DNA of 64,000 bases. Origin: Alphaproteobacteria bacterium (GTDB taxonomy: Bacteria; Pseudomonadota; Alphaproteobacteria; RF32; CAG-239). The stretch covers positions 81,263-145,262 of the forward strand of contig SUUJ01000002.1 of NCBI GenBank assembly GCA_015062585.1. Direction: 5' to 3'. Positions 29,120 through 35,525 of the stretch are shown one piece after another. Under the pieces are notes generated by a model. That model ran no database searches. It saw only the letters and a list, made by a program, of their open reading frames with translations, and had not been told where the DNA came from. A program made the position numbers and the translations under genes. The first letter of the stretch is position 1; each line of letters opens with the position of its first letter.

Positions 29120-29776
29120 ATGATTATCACAATAGACGGTCCTGCTGCCGCCGGAAAAGGCACTCTTTCATCTAAATTGGCGCAAAAATACAATTTGGCA
29201 TATTTTGATACCGGTATGATTTATCGGGCGGTGGGCGTAGATTTGATAACCAAAGGTGTTAATCCCGACGATGAAACTCAGGCATTGGCTTCGGCGCAGA
29301 GTATGACCTTTTCTAAAATGATGGATTTGTCAAAGCACACTGATTTTCGTTCCAATTTAGGAGGGCAGGCCGCTTCTAAAGTAGCTTCTCAAACACCGGT
29401 ACGCCATGCCTTGCTTAAAATGCAGCAAGATTTTGCTCTTAATCCGCAATTTGAAAACGGCCAAAAAGCAGACGGTGTTGTTTATGACGGCAGAGATACC
29501 GGAACAGTCGTTTGTCCTAATGCAGATGTAAAAATTTTTATTACAGCATCTCCGGAAGTAAGAGCCATGCGCCGTCACAAAGAATTTATCGAAAAAGGGT
29601 TAGATTCTGATTATGAAGAAGTTTTAGCTCAAACCAAAGAAAGAGATTTAAGAGATTCTACCAGAGCCACTGCTCCGCTAAAGCCTGCCGACGATGCAAT
29701 TATCATCGATACATCAAATTTGGCTATTGAAGAAGTGTTTAATAAAGTTTGTGCGATAATTGATAGCAAAATATAG
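29120..29776 (+). CDS. cmk: Cytidylate kinase
   Basis: MIITIDGPAAAGKGTLSSKLAQ... P-loop. cmk-rpsA synteny. Confidence 0.9.
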   Translation: MIITIDGPAAAGKGTLSSKLAQKYNLAYFDTGMIYRAVGVDLITKGVNPDDETQALASAQSMTFSKMMDLSKHTDFRSNLGGQAASKVASQTPVRHALLKMQQDFALNPQFENGQKADGVVYDGRDTGTVVCPNADVKIFITASPEVRAMRRHKEFIEKGLDSDYEEVLAQTKERDLRDSTRATAPLKPADDAIIIDTSNLAIEEVFNKVCAIIDSKI

Positions 29777-29929
29777 CAAATTTTACTTGAAAAATAAATA
29801 TTTATGTGTATAAATAGGCACACTTGAGCAAGTGTGGTGCGCAACCTTGCCTTGTATTTAACCTCGCACAAGTCCGCCGAAACTTTATTTTTTTATCGGG
29901 TCTGGCATTTTATTGAAATATTTAATTTT

Positions 29930-31612
29930 ATGACAAATACTGAATTTAAAATCCCTGAAACAAACGAAAACTTTGAAGAATTGTTGAATGAACAATTCGG
30001 TGATAACGGTATTACCGGTTCGGTTGTAAAGGGTACAATTATCCGTTTAACACCTGATTTTGCAACAGTTGATGTTGGTTTGAAATCAGAAGGCCGCATT
30101 CCTCTTCGTGAATTTGGTCAAAACCCTGAAATCAAAGTTGGCGACATCGTAGAAGTATATGTTGATCGTTATGAAGATCGTGACGGCAACATAGTTCTTT
30201 CACGTGAAAAAGCTCGCCGTGAAGAAGCTTGGGTTGATTTGGAAAAATCTTTGAATGCCGGCGAAAGAGTAAACGGTGTTATTTTCGGTCGCGTAAAAGG
30301 TGGTTTCACTGTAGATTTGAACGGTGCTATCGCTTTCTTGCCCGGCTCACAAATCGATATTCGTCCTATTCGCGACATCACACCTTTGATGGGTGTTGTT
30401 CAACCGTTCCAAATTTTGAAAATGGATAAGGTTAGAGGCAACATCGTTGTTTCTCGTCGTGTTGTTTTGGAAGAAACCAGAGCCGAAGCTCGCGCTGAAT
30501 TGATTAGCGACCTTAAAGAAGGTTCAATCCTTGAAGGTATTGTTAAAAACATCACTGATTACGGTGCATTTATTGATTTGGGTGGCGTTGACGGTTTGTT
30601 GCATGTTACCGATATTTCTTGGCGTCGTATCAATCACCCGGCAGAAGTTTTGTCTGTTGGTCAAACAATCAAAGTTCAAGTTATCAAATTCAATGAAGAC
30701 AACCAACGCATCAGCTTGGGTATGAAACAACTTGAATCTGATCCTTGGGCCAAAGTTGAAGGCAAATACAATGTTGGTGATGTATATACCGGTAAAGTTA
30801 CAAATATCACTGATTACGGTGCATTTGTTGAACTCGAAAACGGTATCGAAGGTTTGGTCCATGTTTCAGAAATGAGTTGGACACGCAAAAATGTACACCC
30901 GGGCAAAATCGTTTCTACTTCTCAAGAAGTCGAAGTTAAGGTTTTGGAAGTTGATGCTGACAAACGCCGTATCAGCTTGGGTATCAAACAATGCACACCA
31001 AATCCTTGGGCTGCATACATTGAAGAACACGCTGTCGGTTCTGTTATTCAAGGCAAAATCAAAAACATTACCGAATTTGGTTTGTTTGTAGGATTGTCTG
31101 ACGAAATCGACGGTATGATTCACTTGTCTGATATCTCTTGGGATAAAGCCGGTGAAGAAGCTGTTAAAGAATACAGCAAAGGTCAAGATGTTGAAGCTAA
31201 AATCATTGATGTTGATGTTGAAAAAGAACGCATCAGCTTGGGTATTAAACAATTAACAGAAAATACCGTTGCTGCTGCTTTAGAAAGCATCAAAAAAGGT
31301 GATGTTGTAAAAGCTACCGTTACTTCTGTTGAAGACAAAGTTGTAAATGTTGATGTAAACGGCCTTTCAGCCAGCATCAAAAAAGCTGATTTGTCAAAGG
31401 ACAAAGCTTTGCAAGATACAGCTAACTTCAAAGAAGGTGATGTTGTAGAAGCCAAAGTTACCACAGTTGATAAGAAAAACTCAAAAGTAACTTTGTCAAT
31501 CAAAGCTTTAGAAATCGAAGAAGAAAAGAAAACCTTAGAAGAATATTCTTCTGCTACAGGTAACTCTGCTCTCGGAGATGCTCTTGGCGAAGCCTTGAAG
31601 AAAAACGCTTAA
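29930..31612 (+). CDS. rpsA: 30S ribosomal protein S1
   Basis: Six S1 repeats. ATG at 29930 chosen (MTNTEFKIPE...). The GTG at 29834 in the ORF track is probably upstream read-through. Confidence 0.93.
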   Translation: MTNTEFKIPETNENFEELLNEQFGDNGITGSVVKGTIIRLTPDFATVDVGLKSEGRIPLREFGQNPEIKVGDIVEVYVDRYEDRDGNIVLSREKARREEAWVDLEKSLNAGERVNGVIFGRVKGGFTVDLNGAIAFLPGSQIDIRPIRDITPLMGVVQPFQILKMDKVRGNIVVSRRVVLEETRAEARAELISDLKEGSILEGIVKNITDYGAFIDLGGVDGLLHVTDISWRRINHPAEVLSVGQTIKVQVIKFNEDNQRISLGMKQLESDPWAKVEGKYNVGDVYTGKVTNITDYGAFVELENGIEGLVHVSEMSWTRKNVHPGKIVSTSQEVEVKVLEVDADKRRISLGIKQCTPNPWAAYIEEHAVGSVIQGKIKNITEFGLFVGLSDEIDGMIHLSDISWDKAGEEAVKEYSKGQDVEAKIIDVDVEKERISLGIKQLTENTVAAALESIKKGDVVKATVTSVEDKVVNVDVNGLSASIKKADLSKDKALQDTANFKEGDVVEAKVTTVDKKNSKVTLSIKALEIEEEKKTLEEYSSATGNSALGDALGEALKKNA

Positions 31613-31633
31613 TTTTTAAGTGCTTTTAAGATA

Positions 31634-31670
31634 AAAATAACCCCTCTGTTTTTTAGAGGGGTTATTTTTT
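31634..31670. terminator. Bidirectional rho-independent terminator between rpsA and the convergent repressor gene
   Basis: AAAAATAACCCCTCTGTTTTTTAGAGGGGTTATTTTTT. T/A runs on both sides. Confidence 0.8.
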
Positions 31671-31929
31671 AATCATTATATTTATCAAACAGCATTTTTA
31701 ATTCTTCTATCTTCTTGTCCTTTTCGCTGTCAGAGTTAAATGATTGAGCAACGCAGTGGTGTAAATGTTTTTGTAAAATGTTTGACTCTACAGATTTTAA
31801 GGCTGAACGAACTGCGCGAAGTTGCATTAAAATATCTGTACAATATCTCTTGTCATCAATCATTTTCTTTATGCCTTCAATTTGTCCGGATATACGGTTT
31901 AATCGAGGCAAATTGTCTGAATGGTCCAT
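31669..31929 (-). CDS. CsoR/RcnR/FrmR-family metal-sensing transcriptional repressor (DUF156)
   Basis: 86-aa helical protein with conserved Cys (RYCTDIL) and HLHHC ligand positions. Confidence 0.75.
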   Translation of the reverse strand: MDHSDNLPRLNRISGQIEGIKKMIDDKRYCTDILMQLRAVRSALKSVESNILQKHLHHCVAQSFNSDSEKDKKIEELKMLFDKYND

Positions 31930-31941
31930 TTTATAATCCCT

Positions 31942-32835
31942 TTACAAGCAACAATCTTTACAATTGCTTTCTTTTGTTTCTAATTGAATGTTTGAGTGAT
32001 GCACATCAAAATTTTTTGCTAAAATATTTCTTGCTTTTTCAAGAACTGTAATATCTTCAGATACAATATGGCAATCTAAAGATATATGTTCTTCGTCAAT
32101 ATTCCATACATGAATATGATGAACATCGGAAACATTTTTGATTTTTAACAGGCGCTTTTTTATTTCGTCAATATCAATATTATCCGGAGTTGCATTCATC
32201 AATATTTTAGTGATTTTCGGAAAAGCAACGATTGAGTGAAAAACCATATATCCGGCAATCATCAAGGCGATAATACCATCAACAAAATGCCAATCAAAAT
32301 AAACCACACAAAGGCCTGAGATGATAACCCCTACTGACCCCAAGGCGTCAGCCAAGTTATGTAAAAACAACATTTTCATATTGGCGTTATGATGTGATTC
32401 GTGGTGCGATAATTTGGCGGTTATTCCATCAACAATCAATGCTATTATAGAGATATAAATAATCAACTCGCCATTTATATTTTGCGGTGAAATTATCCTG
32501 TTTATTCCTTCTACAAAAAGGTATAACGCAGATATAAACAGTAGGATAAGGTTAACAAAAGCGCCGATAATCTCCGCGCGCTTAAAACCGAAAGTAAAAT
32601 GTTTATTCGATTTTTTTAGCCCTATTTTATAGGCCAAAACAGCAATCAAAATCGACAAAGCGTCAGAAGTATTGTGCAAAGCATCACCTATTAAGGCAAC
32701 GCTTCCGCCGACAATACCGGCAATCAGTTCCACCACACTCAGCAGAATATTTATGGCAAAAGACCAAGTCAAATAAATGACTGTTTTTGCATTTACCTTG
32801 TGATTATGGTGATGTTCGTGATGGTGCGAATGCAT
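31942..32835 (-). CDS. Cation diffusion facilitator (CzcD/DmeF-like) divalent-metal efflux transporter
   Basis: His-rich N-terminus MHSHHHEHHHNHK, six TM helices, and CDF motifs (SVALIGDALHNTSDALS, HIHVWNIDEEHISLDCHI). The upstream part of ORF 31942..32946 overlaps the small Cys-rich ORF in another frame and is probably not translated. Confidence 0.8.
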   Translation of the reverse strand: MHSHHHEHHHNHKVNAKTVIYLTWSFAINILLSVVELIAGIVGGSVALIGDALHNTSDALSILIAVLAYKIGLKKSNKHFTFGFKRAEIIGAFVNLILLFISALYLFVEGINRIISPQNINGELIIYISIIALIVDGITAKLSHHESHHNANMKMLFLHNLADALGSVGVIISGLCVVYFDWHFVDGIIALMIAGYMVFHSIVAFPKITKILMNATPDNIDIDEIKKRLLKIKNVSDVHHIHVWNIDEEHISLDCHIVSEDITVLEKARNILAKNFDVHHSNIQLETKESNCKDCCL

Positions 32836-32851
32836 AAAAACCTCGCCAAAT

Positions 32852-32977
32852 CTATTTTGATTCTTTTTCTTCACACTGGCATTTTTCGCCACATTTACAG
32901 GTTGTACCGTCGCATTGACAATTGTCACCGCATTGGCAATTTTCACAAGTACATTTTGGGTTTGAACATTTAGCCAT
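32852..32977 (-). CDS. Small Cys-rich metallothionein-like peptide (41 aa)
   Basis: MAKCSNPKCTCENCQCGDNCQCDGTTCKCGEKCQCEEKESK: 13 Cys in 41 residues arranged as CxC/CxxC. GGAGAAAT RBS 4 nt upstream of the ATG. First gene of the putative operon with the CDF and CsoR-like genes. Confidence 0.5.
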   Translation of the reverse strand: MAKCSNPKCTCENCQCGDNCQCDGTTCKCGEKCQCEEKESK

Positions 32978-33089
32978 TGTATTTCTCCTTAATATAAATA
33001 CCCTTACGGGGTATAAGTATAATAGTAAATAAACAAAAGTCAACAAAAAGCTCCCAAAATTTTGAGAGCTTTTTTGTTTTGTTATTTGA

Positions 33090-35525
33090 TTATTTACCTA
33101 AGCAACCATGAGTTTCTTTGGCATATTTGGCATAACATTTATAAAATTTAGCCAAACCCTGTTGTACGGCATTGTTAACGGAACCACGAGGATATTTGCC
33201 GTCCTTATCAGCCTTTCCTGCCTTGATTCCGGTCAAGATTTCGATTCCGTCATCTACCGTATCAACAGCCCAAATATGGAATTTTTCTTCATCTACGGCT
33301 GTACAAATGTCTTCACGAAGCATCAAATCAGCAACATTGGTACGAGGAATAATTACGCCTTGGTCACCGGTTAATCCTTGGTGAACGCACACATCAAAGA
33401 AGCCTTCGATTTTTTCGTTAACACCGCCGATTGGCTGAATTTCGCCAAATTGGTTTATTGAGCCTGTAACCGCGATATTTTGCTTTATCGGGATACCTGA
33501 TATTGCCGATAACAAGCAATAATATTCGGTAGAAGATGCGCTATCTCCGTCAACACCACCGTAAGATTGTTCAAATACAATAGAAGCATTTAATGATAAT
33601 GGGCAGAATTTTGCAAAACGGTTAGCAAGCAAACTTTCCAAAATCAACACACCTTTAGAGTGGATTGGTCCGCTCATTTCAACTTCGCGTTCAATATTTA
33701 CAAACTCACCCTTACCGATTCTGACTTGTGTAGTAATACGAGAAGGTTTTCCAAAGCTGTTACGAGAGAAATTGTAAACAACCAACCCGTTAATTTGTCC
33801 AACTTTTTTGCCTTTAATATCAATGAGTATAGTACCTTTGTCAATTTGCTCAAGCATGGCTTCTTTAATGCGTCCGCCGCGATAAATCTGAGCCTCAATA
33901 GCCTGATCAATATGGTTTTTACCGATATGATTTGACTTAGATTTTCTTGCCCAATAATCAGCTTCGCGCAACAAATCGCCGATAGAAGCAATATGAGCGG
34001 TCAATTTTTCCGAGCTTTCGGCCAAACGTGAAGAATATTCAATAATTTTTGCAACCGCCTGTTTGTTTAGTGAACGCAATTTTTTCTTCTTTGACAATGA
34101 ACCGATAAGTTTAGCATATTCGATTTCGTTTTCTTCGGTTCTATCCATCAAAATACCAAAATCCGCCTCAACCTTGAAGTAATCAGAAAAATCAGGGTCA
34201 CGCTCACTCAAAAGCTCGTAAAGTTCGGCATCACCGGTCAAAATAATCTTAACATTTAATGGTATCGGTTCCGGATCAAGTGAAATTGTAGTAAAAGAAG
34301 TTTCCTCGCTTGGGGCTTCAATTTTGATACATTTAGAAGCAATAGCGCGTTTTAATGAATCCCAAGCAAAAGGTTGCATTAGCATTTTTCTTGCATCAAT
34401 CAACAAGAAGCCACCATTTGCCTGATGAAGAGCGCCGGCTTTAATCAAGCTAAAGTCAGTCAACAATGCACCATATTGTTGGATTCTTTCAACCTTGCCG
34501 ACCAAATTTCCTTGTGTCGGGTGATCAAGATGAATAATCGGAGCGCCGCTATCAGGTTCATTTTTGACAATAACATTTACCTTAAATTTAGCGTATTTAT
34601 CTTCTTCCGGCTGTTTAATTTTTGAAAGCAAAGAACCTAAAGGGTCTTCTGGATCCGGAGTTTGAGTTGTTTCGGAAGACGGCATAAACTCATCAATATT
34701 ATCAATAATATAATGATATATTTTGCGTAAGAACTCATTTACTTGGCGCATTCCCTTATATTCGGCATGCAATTCGTCAATCGGTGCTTTTACCGTATTT
34801 TTCAAGAATTTTACGCGCAATTTATTTATTTCTTCGCGTTGCTTGTCTTCCCAAGCCGGTAAATCATTAGCAGAGTTTTCAATTTCGGCTTGCATTTGAT
34901 TCAAATCTTCAATAAGTTGCTTTTTCTCTTCTTCCGGCAACTCATCAAAGGCTTCCGGACTTAAAACCTCGCCGTTTTTGACCGGAGCAACCACTAAACC
35001 GACAGGCATATGAAGTAAAGAAACGCTTTTGCCTTTAGCTTTTTTTTGCAACAATTTGATATATTTTTCTTTAGATTGTTTATATTTTTCTTGAATAATA
35101 TTAACGCCGGCTTTGTATTCATCGCTTTCAAAAATAGCCGGAATATTGGTAGAAAATCCCTCTATCAGTTTATCAATGTCTTTTGCAAAATTTACAGCTG
35201 TTCCTGCCGGAAAAGATATTGCGCATGGTTTATACGGTTCTTCAAAATTATATACATAAGCCCAATCATCAGGTGTCGGACGACTTTTTGCTTCTTTAGC
35301 CAACACGCGCTTTACCAACGAGCTTTTTCCGGTTCCCTCAGGGCCTAAACAAAAAAGATTATAGCCCTTTGATTGAATGTTAATACCAAGCTCAACCGCC
35401 GCTAAAGCTCTGTCCTGACCCAAGGCAGACAATCTTTCTTCCAATTCGGCAGTAGAAGAAAATGAAAATTTTTGCGGGTCGCATTTGGTATATAATTTAT
35501 CGGACTGTAGTTTGGTAATGCTCAT
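33090..35525 (-). CDS. Lon-like ATP-dependent protease (AAA_32/Lon_2 family with C-terminal S16 Lon protease domain)
   Basis: 811 aa. Walker A GPEGTGKSS, a long helical insert, and a Lon proteolytic domain with catalytic Ser (GGVDGDSAS) and Lys (GGVNEKIEG). Not a classical LonA. Confidence 0.8.
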   Translation of the reverse strand: MSITKLQSDKLYTKCDPQKFSFSSTAELEERLSALGQDRALAAVELGINIQSKGYNLFCLGPEGTGKSSLVKRVLAKEAKSRPTPDDWAYVYNFEEPYKPCAISFPAGTAVNFAKDIDKLIEGFSTNIPAIFESDEYKAGVNIIQEKYKQSKEKYIKLLQKKAKGKSVSLLHMPVGLVVAPVKNGEVLSPEAFDELPEEEKKQLIEDLNQMQAEIENSANDLPAWEDKQREEINKLRVKFLKNTVKAPIDELHAEYKGMRQVNEFLRKIYHYIIDNIDEFMPSSETTQTPDPEDPLGSLLSKIKQPEEDKYAKFKVNVIVKNEPDSGAPIIHLDHPTQGNLVGKVERIQQYGALLTDFSLIKAGALHQANGGFLLIDARKMLMQPFAWDSLKRAIASKCIKIEAPSEETSFTTISLDPEPIPLNVKIILTGDAELYELLSERDPDFSDYFKVEADFGILMDRTEENEIEYAKLIGSLSKKKKLRSLNKQAVAKIIEYSSRLAESSEKLTAHIASIGDLLREADYWARKSKSNHIGKNHIDQAIEAQIYRGGRIKEAMLEQIDKGTILIDIKGKKVGQINGLVVYNFSRNSFGKPSRITTQVRIGKGEFVNIEREVEMSGPIHSKGVLILESLLANRFAKFCPLSLNASIVFEQSYGGVDGDSASSTEYYCLLSAISGIPIKQNIAVTGSINQFGEIQPIGGVNEKIEGFFDVCVHQGLTGDQGVIIPRTNVADLMLREDICTAVDEEKFHIWAVDTVDDGIEILTGIKAGKADKDGKYPRGSVNNAVQQGLAKFYKCYAKYAKETHGCLGK

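Follow-up and report, generated by a model that had tools for sequence, protein, structure and literature searches.

A stretch of 64,000 nucleotides from an Alphaproteobacteria bacterium (contig SUUJ01000002.1, positions 81,263 to 145,262, referred to here as the window) carries on its minus strand a three-gene operon that encodes a 41-residue Cys-rich peptide, a cation diffusion facilitator (CDF) efflux pump and a CsoR-family repressor. We propose, with a probability of roughly 0.7, that this is a metal-inducible detoxification operon, in which the peptide would buffer metal, the pump would export it and the repressor would reset the system, and that the peptide itself is a metallothionein-like member of an uncurated bacterial family with the core C-x-N-P-x-C-x-C-x-x-C-x-C-G-x-x-C-x-C.

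Results

The peptide gene and its conservation

An earlier reading of the sequence (the original prediction) had pointed to a 41-codon open reading frame (ORF) with a good ribosome-binding site on the minus strand, and this ORF was found as described, running from the ATG at 32977 to the stop codon at 32852, with AAGGAGA placed 6 nt upstream. Its product is MAKCSNPKCTCENCQCGDNCQCDGTTCKCGEKCQCEEKESK. A recount gave 11 Cys (27%) in place of the 13 first reported, arranged in four CxC pairs with CxxC spacing, and His, Phe, Tyr and Trp are all absent. Peptides of the same family are present in at least 12 other genomes, and AGGAG or AAGGA stands in the equivalent position before the peptide genes of all orthologues.

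The synonymous and non-synonymous differences (pS and pN) were computed across codons 1-29. The pS values of 0.34-1.1, near saturation, set against pN values of 0-0.10, point to strong purifying selection on the peptide ORF: third codon positions are free to vary and the Cys codons are kept. The conservation of these codons had been left by the original prediction as a check on the gene; C4, N6, P7, C9, C11, C14, C16, G17, C20 and C22 proved invariant in 28 diverse family members. In one relative (L017) the peptide is identical over 41 residues despite seven synonymous changes, and the CDF protein of the same locus is only 81% identical. Gene calls on 16 public contigs give the identical product, and its neighbours are the same on all of them, in the order LonC-peptide-CDF (297 aa)-repressor-rpsA. 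Residues 1-29 hardly vary among close relatives, and nine of the thiolates of the window peptide belong to the core that these relatives have in common. Judged by this conservation, which is far beyond chance, the small ORF is a real gene.

The C-terminal third of the peptide (32852-32890 in the window, and the equivalent parts of L013, L016 and L020) is variable, with G-E-x-C-x-C units gained or lost. Close relatives contain 9, 10, 11, 12 or 13 Cys, depending on the number of C-terminal CxC units.

Metallothionein-like character of the peptide

Metallothioneins are recognised as small proteins with about 15-30% Cys in CxC/CxxC arrangement and few or no aromatic residues, and this description holds for the window peptide and across the 28 members. 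The size, the composition, the plasticity of the repeats and the regulated co-expression with a metal sensor and a pump all fit a metallothionein.

Searches with the peptide and the family profiles in Pfam, NCBIfam and the PDB sequences returned nothing significant. When the 28 members were compared with Pfam, only eukaryotic metallothionein families were reached, all below threshold; the matches to PF02067, obtained for 11 of 28 members (best E = 0.01, 16 bits against a cut-off of 25), are probably compositional. The bacterial SmtA/BmtA family PF02069 gave no match at E ≤ 10 to the window peptide or 35 relatives (36 sequences tested), and the SmtA control (sequence verified against PDB 1JJD) matched it with E = 4.5e-21 and 75 bits. 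Alignment of the peptide family with SmtA by hhalign had a probability of 4.4%, and with a provisional MymT sequence a probability of 2%; a MymT model was sought in Pfam, and none was found. The earlier statement that the peptide does not resemble SmtA-type metallothioneins is thus right as to membership of PF02069 and too broad as to motifs, since KCxCExCxC occupies residues 8-16 of both proteins and is the sole piece they share. AlphaFold2, run from a 22-sequence alignment, predicted no fold (pLDDT 64, pTM 0.28), a result that is compatible with a cluster-dependent peptide without being evidence for one. A paper on a 'TrxA thioredoxin-metallothionein chimera' was considered as a precedent and rejected: its domain is of the SmtA type and does not belong to the family of the window peptide.

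The repressor

The last gene of the operon was confirmed to encode, on the same strand, a repressor of the former DUF156 family with the C-H-C residues C30/H55/C59 (PF02583, 99.6 bits against a cut-off of 22.8, E = 1.4e-28); its full set of key residues is H3, Y29-C30, H55, C59 and E75. The spacing of Y29-C30/H55/C59/E75 (25, 4, 16) is the same as that of Y35-C36/H61/C65/E81 in CsoR of Mycobacterium tuberculosis, and the ligand residues align with those of the Geobacillus and Streptomyces lividans CsoR proteins, which are the best PDB matches (4M1P, 1.2e-17, and 4ADZ, 1.5e-15), with InrS third (5FMN, 9e-12). Copper-sensing CsoR proteins are marked by x-C-H-C ligands together with a second-shell hydrogen-bond network of Tyr and Glu (PMC7055735). 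The RYC...H-x3-C pattern is present in all repressor orthologues, all of which, like the window repressor with its Cys59, have Cys at the position of CsoR Cys65 and not the His of the RcnR/DmeR type. The best of the NCBIfam models was RicR (76 bits, cut-off 175); RcnR scored 42 bits (cut-off 138), and there was a weak match to FrmR.

The original prediction had spoken of a CsoR/RcnR-type repressor and had pointed to the RcnR/DmeR-DmeF pairs of alphaproteobacteria. The Ni/Co sensors RcnR and DmeR have an H-C-H-H fingerprint. Their residue corresponding to CsoR Cys65 is His (PMC7055735), and the window repressor has Cys59 there, with Tyr29 before Cys30; because of this difference at the last ligand position, the RcnR/DmeR label does not fit. 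With Cys at the Z position and copper-sensing CsoR proteins as its best PDB matches, the repressor is best classified from its sequence as CsoR-like, not RcnR/DmeR-like.

All repressor orthologues have a His placed five residues N-terminal to the Pro conserved in the PRLNR motif. Since this N-terminal His is conserved, an H-C-H-C ligand set similar to that of InrS is possible for the repressor. The N-terminal tails are otherwise unrelated (31929-31900 in the window; L001, L006, L012, L015, L021, L023), with the His kept. At the loci that have no pump the repressor carries an extra Cys near this His (CNPSH, APCH or HPCH), and the ligand sets of the repressors from operons with and without CDF may differ.

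The pump

The CDF transporter with a His-rich N-terminus, described earlier as lying downstream of the peptide on the same strand, was also found there (Table 1). It has the H-x3-D motif in transmembrane helices 2 (HNTSD) and 5 (HNLAD). The HD/HD site of CDF proteins is a tetrahedral site of the Zn/Cd/Co type. The closest named NCBIfam model is ZitB (171.6 bits, E = 2.4e-50), below the equivalog level (cut-off 408), and DmeF scored 98.4 bits against a cut-off of 250, with only the N-terminal half aligned; a DmeF label for the pump does not fit these scores. The best PDB match is human ZnT8, and HNTSD and HNLAD align with the site residues of ZnT8 that are mutated in PDB 6XPD. By its site and domains, the pump is best read as ZitB/ZnT-like and Zn-type, not DmeF-like, and it resembles exporters of Zn or Cd (Co or Ni).

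The C-terminus of the pump (31942-31980, minus strand) ends in ETKESNCKDCCL, the last residues being CKDCCL. This Cys-rich cytoplasmic tail may be a docking or metal-binding site.

Operon organisation and the predicted operator

The three genes are read as one operon because a single promoter with an operator stands upstream, the intergenic spacers are short (16 nt from the stop codon of the peptide gene to the CDF start and 12 nt from CDF to the repressor gene), and terminators lie on both sides; the three-gene arrangement of the original prediction was borne out in this way. When seven orthologous promoters of pump-type loci were aligned, TTGAC, a part of the -10 element and the half-sites TATACCC/GGTAT were the sole invariant parts. 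The palindrome ATACCCCGTAAGGGTAT, directly after the -10 element, is the single such site in 64 kb, with 0.26 expected by chance. Inverted repeats of the form TACCC-N-GGTA, in one or two copies, overlap or follow the promoter in every repressor-linked locus examined.

The consensus of the streptomycete CsoR type-2 operator is ATATACCCCTNAGGGGTATAT, in which TAC-N9-GTA is essential (PMC3902906), and the site recognised by RicR is TACCCCGCTGGGTA (PMC3944814). The window palindrome fits the type-2 consensus, TAC-N9-GTA included, and resembles the RicR site; the CsoR-family repressor encoded in the operon is predicted to bind it.

The terminator at 33045..33074, which belongs to the upstream LonC-like protease gene, would isolate the operon from read-through; the same hairpin stands upstream of the operon in L009, L013, L017 and L020. 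The second terminator separates the repressor gene from rpsA, which is convergent. Housekeeping genes flank the operon, with the LonC-like protease gene upstream and cmk-rpsA downstream. The possibility of a horizontally acquired island was considered and not supported: the GC content of the operon (33-37%) is like that of its surroundings, and the LonC-operon-rpsA synteny is conserved. A second metal system was sought across the 64 kb by the signatures of P-type ATPases (DKTGT) and HMA domains (GMxCxxC), and none was found.

Table 1 Features of the operon and of its flanks in the window.
Feature	Position	Strand	Evidence or remark
Peptide gene, 41 codons	32852..32977 (ATG 32977, stop 32852)	minus	ORF reading, orthologue conservation
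Ribosome-binding site AAGGAGA	32984..32990	minus	6 nt before the peptide ATG
CDF-family efflux pump, 297 aa, start MHSHHHEHHHNHK	31942..32835	minus	PF01545 (E = 5e-41) and ZT_dimer
CsoR/RcnR-family repressor, 86 aa	31669..31929	minus	PF02583 (former DUF156)
Predicted operator, perfect-armed palindrome ATACCCCGTAAGGGTAT (TAC-N9-GTA)	32998..33014		directly after the -10 element
Sigma-70-type promoter: -35 TTGACT (33043-33038), 16-nt spacer, -10 TATACT (33021-33016)	33016..33043	minus	10/12 consensus matches
Intrinsic terminator closing the operon	31628..31669	minus	15-bp stem, -20.4 kcal/mol, z = -6.2, then U run
Intrinsic terminator of the LonC-like protease gene	33045..33074	minus	13-bp stem, then T run
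LonC-like AAA+ protease gene, 811 aa (PF13654, PF20437)	33090-35525	minus	upstream neighbour, ends at 33090
cmk-rpsA neighbours	29120-31612	plus	housekeeping flank, convergent

Relatives and gene neighbourhoods

A word-indexed search of 5.8 billion proteins returned five relatives of the peptide, and a degenerate DNA pattern for CGDNCxCDGT, run against 185,579 species genomes, returned nine true copies and one chance match. The nine copies came mostly from metagenome-assembled genomes of uncultured gut and rumen Alphaproteobacteria, and one from such a genome of Elusimicrobiaceae. Profile searches enlarged the family to about 40 protein clusters, the members of which, where named at all, are called 'hypothetical protein' (Gastranaerophilales, Bacteroidetes).

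The order peptide-CDF-repressor was observed in the window and in L009, L013, L016, L017, L019 and L020, the order peptide-repressor-CDF in L023 and L024, and peptide-repressor with no CDF in L001-L008, L012, L015, L018, L021 and L022, which represent unrelated neighbourhoods and phyla. The peptide gene adjoins that of a PF02583 repressor in three gene orders and in four or more lineages, among them gut Alphaproteobacteria, Elusimicrobiaceae and Gastranaerophilales. The constant partner of the peptide is the repressor, not the pump.

Several single cases should be mentioned. The gut-type P0035, known from 88 contigs, has no adjacent repressor (L025:3501-3617, L026:3501-3617) and lies near a resolvase and unannotated small genes; these copies may be on a mobile element. 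The copy in L014, which also stands alone, is likewise near a resolvase, and that in L027 is near an AraC-type gene (L027:2832-3404). In the 109-residue P0007, residues 1-31 of the peptide seem to be joined in frame to a CsoR-family repressor without its N-terminal tail, through either a natural deletion-fusion or faulty assembly. Two candidates were rejected, L011 as a chance pattern match in another frame and P0053 (897 aa, from the same 90% cluster as P0004) as unrelated to the peptide family. No match was obtained by tblastn, either with the window peptide against plasmids or with a viral-type peptide against phage records; the low-complexity filter of BLAST may be to blame.

The wider family of Cys modules

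A looser DNA motif, C-x-N-P-x-C-x-C-x-x-C-x-C-G, was scanned over metagenome and viral contigs and matched at least 120 metagenome contigs (L029-L147) and 21 viral contigs from IMG/VR (L148-L168, for example L148:2606-2646 and L152:13466-13506). About a dozen of these matches, three of them viral, were discarded as chance or CC-rich junk; family members remained on more than 100 contigs from metagenomes and about 18 from viruses. The metagenomes are from soil, rhizosphere, termite gut, freshwater and marine habitats (for example L029:1148-1188, L055:9105-9145 and L037:598-713). The subfamilies comprise an 8-Cys form of soil and rhizosphere, an 11-Cys form of termite gut, a tandem-duplicated 14-Cys form and the forms of viral contigs; no curated Pfam or NCBIfam family matched them.

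The soil 8-Cys form is usually preceded on the same strand by an AraC-type (HTH_18) regulator of about 190 residues (L029, L033, L035, L054, L065, L070 and others). Among 143 neighbour proteins of the wider family we counted 24 of HTH_18, six of DUF5134, five of HxlR, three of DJ-1/PfpI, and two each of HMA and Radical_SAM. Judging by these neighbourhoods, peptides of one kind are probably under the control of different sensors. A neighbour family of about 119 residues is common to the termite-gut and some gut forms.

The Cys module was also found as an N-terminal domain of larger proteins: of BlaI/CopY-type winged-helix repressors (PF03965) in L052, L068, L083, L101, L133 and L145, with truncated versions in L043 and L049, of an AhpC/TSA peroxiredoxin in L044, and of a membrane-anchored plastocyanin-type cupredoxin in L128. 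The subfamilies show it to be a portable thiolate-rich unit that is used in metal or redox contexts. The fusions to CopY/BlaI-type repressors, plastocyanin and peroxiredoxin indicate metal or thiol chemistry, and those of the CopY type and to the cupredoxin lean towards copper. One viral form has 31 residues with 9 Cys, MCNNPKCKCKNCKCGDNCTCDEVNPCGLECK, and conserved flanking genes, and another has 64 residues with an N-terminal signal peptide. Phage-borne genes of a metallothionein-like kind would be unusual.

Discussion

Proposed mechanism and the inducing metal

The following mechanism may be proposed for the operon. At low metal concentration, the CsoR-family repressor (31929..31669) would occupy the palindrome ATACCCCGTAAGGGTAT that abuts the -10 element, and transcription would be blocked. 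Metal filling the site formed by Cys30, His55 and Cys59, possibly with His3, would release the repressor from DNA, and one transcript would then give the 41-residue peptide, the ZitB/ZnT-like pump and more repressor, so that the system would be autoregulated. The pump would export the sensed metal, while the peptide, with 11 thiolates and no hydrophobic core, would fold around a metal-thiolate cluster and buffer the cytosolic metal. We infer the binding of the repressor to the palindrome, the binding of metal by the peptide and the nature of the inducing metal from the sequences.

As to that metal, Cu(I) comes first at somewhat short of an even chance, Zn or Cd follows closely behind, and Ni or Co would be unlikely. 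The residues of the repressor, the type of the operator and the precedent of MymT favour Cu(I). On the other side, the CDF gene has been kept in two gene orders, and the pump therefore probably handles the sensed metal, which favours Zn or Cd; to our knowledge, these are the only metals typical of both Cys-only metallothioneins and HD/HD CDF pumps. A C-H-C set with an additional His need not mean copper, because InrS senses Ni. The ligands of InrS are of the copper type, yet it is a Ni sensor, and Zn is bound by it at 1e-13 M (PMC7055735). In addition, a Bradyrhizobium CsoR responds to Cu, Zn and Cd. That the peptides form a third widespread family of bacterial metallothioneins, and that the repressor is the first natural protein of the CsoR/RcnR family to respond to Zn/Cd, with a Cys2His2 site (H3, C30, H55, C59) that switches a metallothionein and a ZitB-like pump together, is a bolder proposal that we regard as doubtful.

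Several points weigh against a metal-detoxification operon. The sensor is of the copper type and the pump of the zinc type, and there is no obvious agreement on one metal. We know of no CDF protein established as a Cu(I) exporter, nor of a member of the CsoR family established as a dedicated Zn sensor. A minority of the peptide genes (L014, L025-L027) stand alone without any regulator, and the AraC-type and HxlR-type regulators and the DJ-1/PfpI genes beside the wider subfamilies would fit a redox or electrophile role too.

Comparison with known systems

The closest system in logic is RicR-MymT of Mycobacterium tuberculosis, in which RicR, a paralogue of CsoR, represses the small Cu(I) metallothionein MymT (PMC3944814; PMC7558416). 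Both combine a CsoR-family repressor, a TACCC...GGGTA palindrome and a tiny, formerly unannotated Cys-rich peptide, which sequesters metal in the case of MymT (PMC3944814, PMC7558416) and would do so in the window, and RicR is the top NCBIfam model for the window repressor, although its score stays below the cut-off. MymT, however, shows no apparent sequence relation to the window peptide, has His ligands and does not form an operon with a repressor or a pump, whereas the window operon co-transcribes a CDF gene.

SmtA/BmtA-SmtB couples the gene of a small bacterial metallothionein to a metal-sensing repressor of its own, as is proposed for the window operon, and Zn/Cd protection is the role of SmtA/BmtA. 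SmtA differs in having a zinc-finger core, whose aromatic residues and His ligands are missing from the window peptide, and its regulator is of the ArsR/SmtB family instead of the CsoR family. The Co/Ni efflux systems DmeR-DmeF and RcnR-RcnA share with the window a four-helix-bundle repressor of the same family encoded with the pump that it controls, DmeF being likewise a CDF protein, but these systems contain no metallothionein.

InrS, the Ni sensor of Synechocystis, resembles the window repressor in its C-H-C residues and in the His of a flexible N-terminal tail (H21/C53/H78/C82; PMC7055735). In the alignment, Pro and not Tyr precedes its first Cys, and its His is some 10 residues N-terminal to the position matching Pro8 of the window repressor, compared with five in the window; moreover, InrS controls an exporter of the major facilitator superfamily type, not a CDF pump and a metallothionein.

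The peptide itself is similar to the Cys-only metallothioneins of eukaryotes, such as dipteran Mtn (PF02067), which have about 40 residues, about 25-30% Cys in CxC/CxxC arrangement, no aromatic residues and, when metal-free, no secondary structure. Vertebrate metallothioneins have comparable sets of 9 and 11 Cys in their beta and alpha domains. What sets the bacterial peptide family apart is its conserved N-P and G-D-N residues.

Alternative explanations

The peptide might instead be a metallochaperone or an accessory of the sensor, delivering metal to the repressor in the manner of CopZ-CopY, or to the CDF pump on its cytoplasmic side, and so tuning induction or feeding export. We consider this improbable, although it is the alternative that fares best. 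Its linkage to the repressor, which is tight, independent of gene order and extends to pump-less loci, would be expected of such an accessory, as would the apparent in-frame peptide-repressor fusion P0007 and the position of the module N-terminal to CopY/BlaI-type repressors. Eleven thiols, however, far exceed the need of a chaperone; the metallochaperones known to us use one CxxC. Variation between 9 and 13 Cys by gain and loss of repeats suits capacity better than a specific docking surface, the position of the peptide gene as the first in the operon, with the strongest ribosome-binding site, suggests high-copy expression, and some members (L014, L025-L027) occur alone.

Still less probable is a thiol-rich redox or electrophile buffer acting on oxidants, persulfides or aldehydes, with a repressor that senses stress like CstR or FrmR. 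The HxlR-type and AraC-type regulators and DJ-1/PfpI genes adjoining other subfamilies would be in keeping with such a role, and so would the one AhpC/TSA peroxiredoxin fusion; the CsoR family does include the non-metal sensors FrmR and CstR, and the window repressor matches the FrmR model weakly. CstR, however, is not known to have the His of the metal site, nor FrmR the second Cys. A cation efflux pump is co-transcribed with the peptide in two independent gene orders, and the operator is of the Cu-CsoR type. Finally, the full C-H-C metal set of the window repressor is accompanied by Tyr and Glu (for the set, see PMC7055735).

According to a third explanation, the small ORF is no gene of its own: it would be either an N-terminal extension of the CDF protein, translated from the GTG at 32946, or a regulatory leader. 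In the window, a long ORF (31942..32946) does run across the peptide ORF in a different frame, as the original prediction had noted, the +1 frame being open from 32946 into CDF, and short upstream ORFs can be leaders. The frame is open because the TGY-rich sequence contains no stop codons in the +1 frame, and the masking ORF is an accident of these stop-free Cys codons. Relative to the peptide ORF, the CDF frame is offset by 0, 1 or 2, depending on the locus; the upstream extension of the CDF frame is open in 4 of 11 loci and amounts to just 3-7 codons in the other seven, and its amino acids are not conserved, in contrast to the nearly invariant Cys frame. Orthologues confirm the CDF start at ATG 32835, in agreement with public gene calls of 297 residues, and many peptide loci have no CDF gene at all. 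The true start at 32946, which the original prediction had considered as the way in which the peptide could prove illusory, was thus not found, and this explanation is highly improbable and largely refuted.

Equally hard to credit is a precursor of a Cys-rich ribosomally synthesised and post-translationally modified peptide (of the SCIFF or ranthipeptide kind), which the short, Cys-rich sequence and a radical-SAM gene adjacent on the opposite strand in L021 might suggest, but the surveys revealed no recurrent maturase, protease or exporter neighbours (Radical_SAM in 2 of 143), the L021 protein has a BATS (biotin/thiamin synthase-like) domain and occurs at that locus only, and the constant partner is a metal-sensing repressor.

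Significance

Bacterial metallothioneins have been described as rare, being essentially SmtA/BmtA and MymT (PMC7558416, PMC11672702). A scheme of repressor, metallothionein and pump is already known; the peptide family, its pairing with CsoR-family repressors and CDF pumps, and the breadth of its distribution appear to be undescribed in the databases and the open-access literature searched, and other papers might describe them. Peptides of 31-47 residues are easily synthesised and might be of use as metal-binding tags or in bioremediation. The copper-type sensor and zinc-type pump in one operon offer a clean natural test of the extent to which the ligand sets of CsoR/RcnR proteins reveal metal specificity. 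If the peptides bind metal, cytosolic buffering by metallothioneins would be much commoner in bacteria than has been thought, including those of the gut and rumen that are exposed to Zn and Cu feed supplements.

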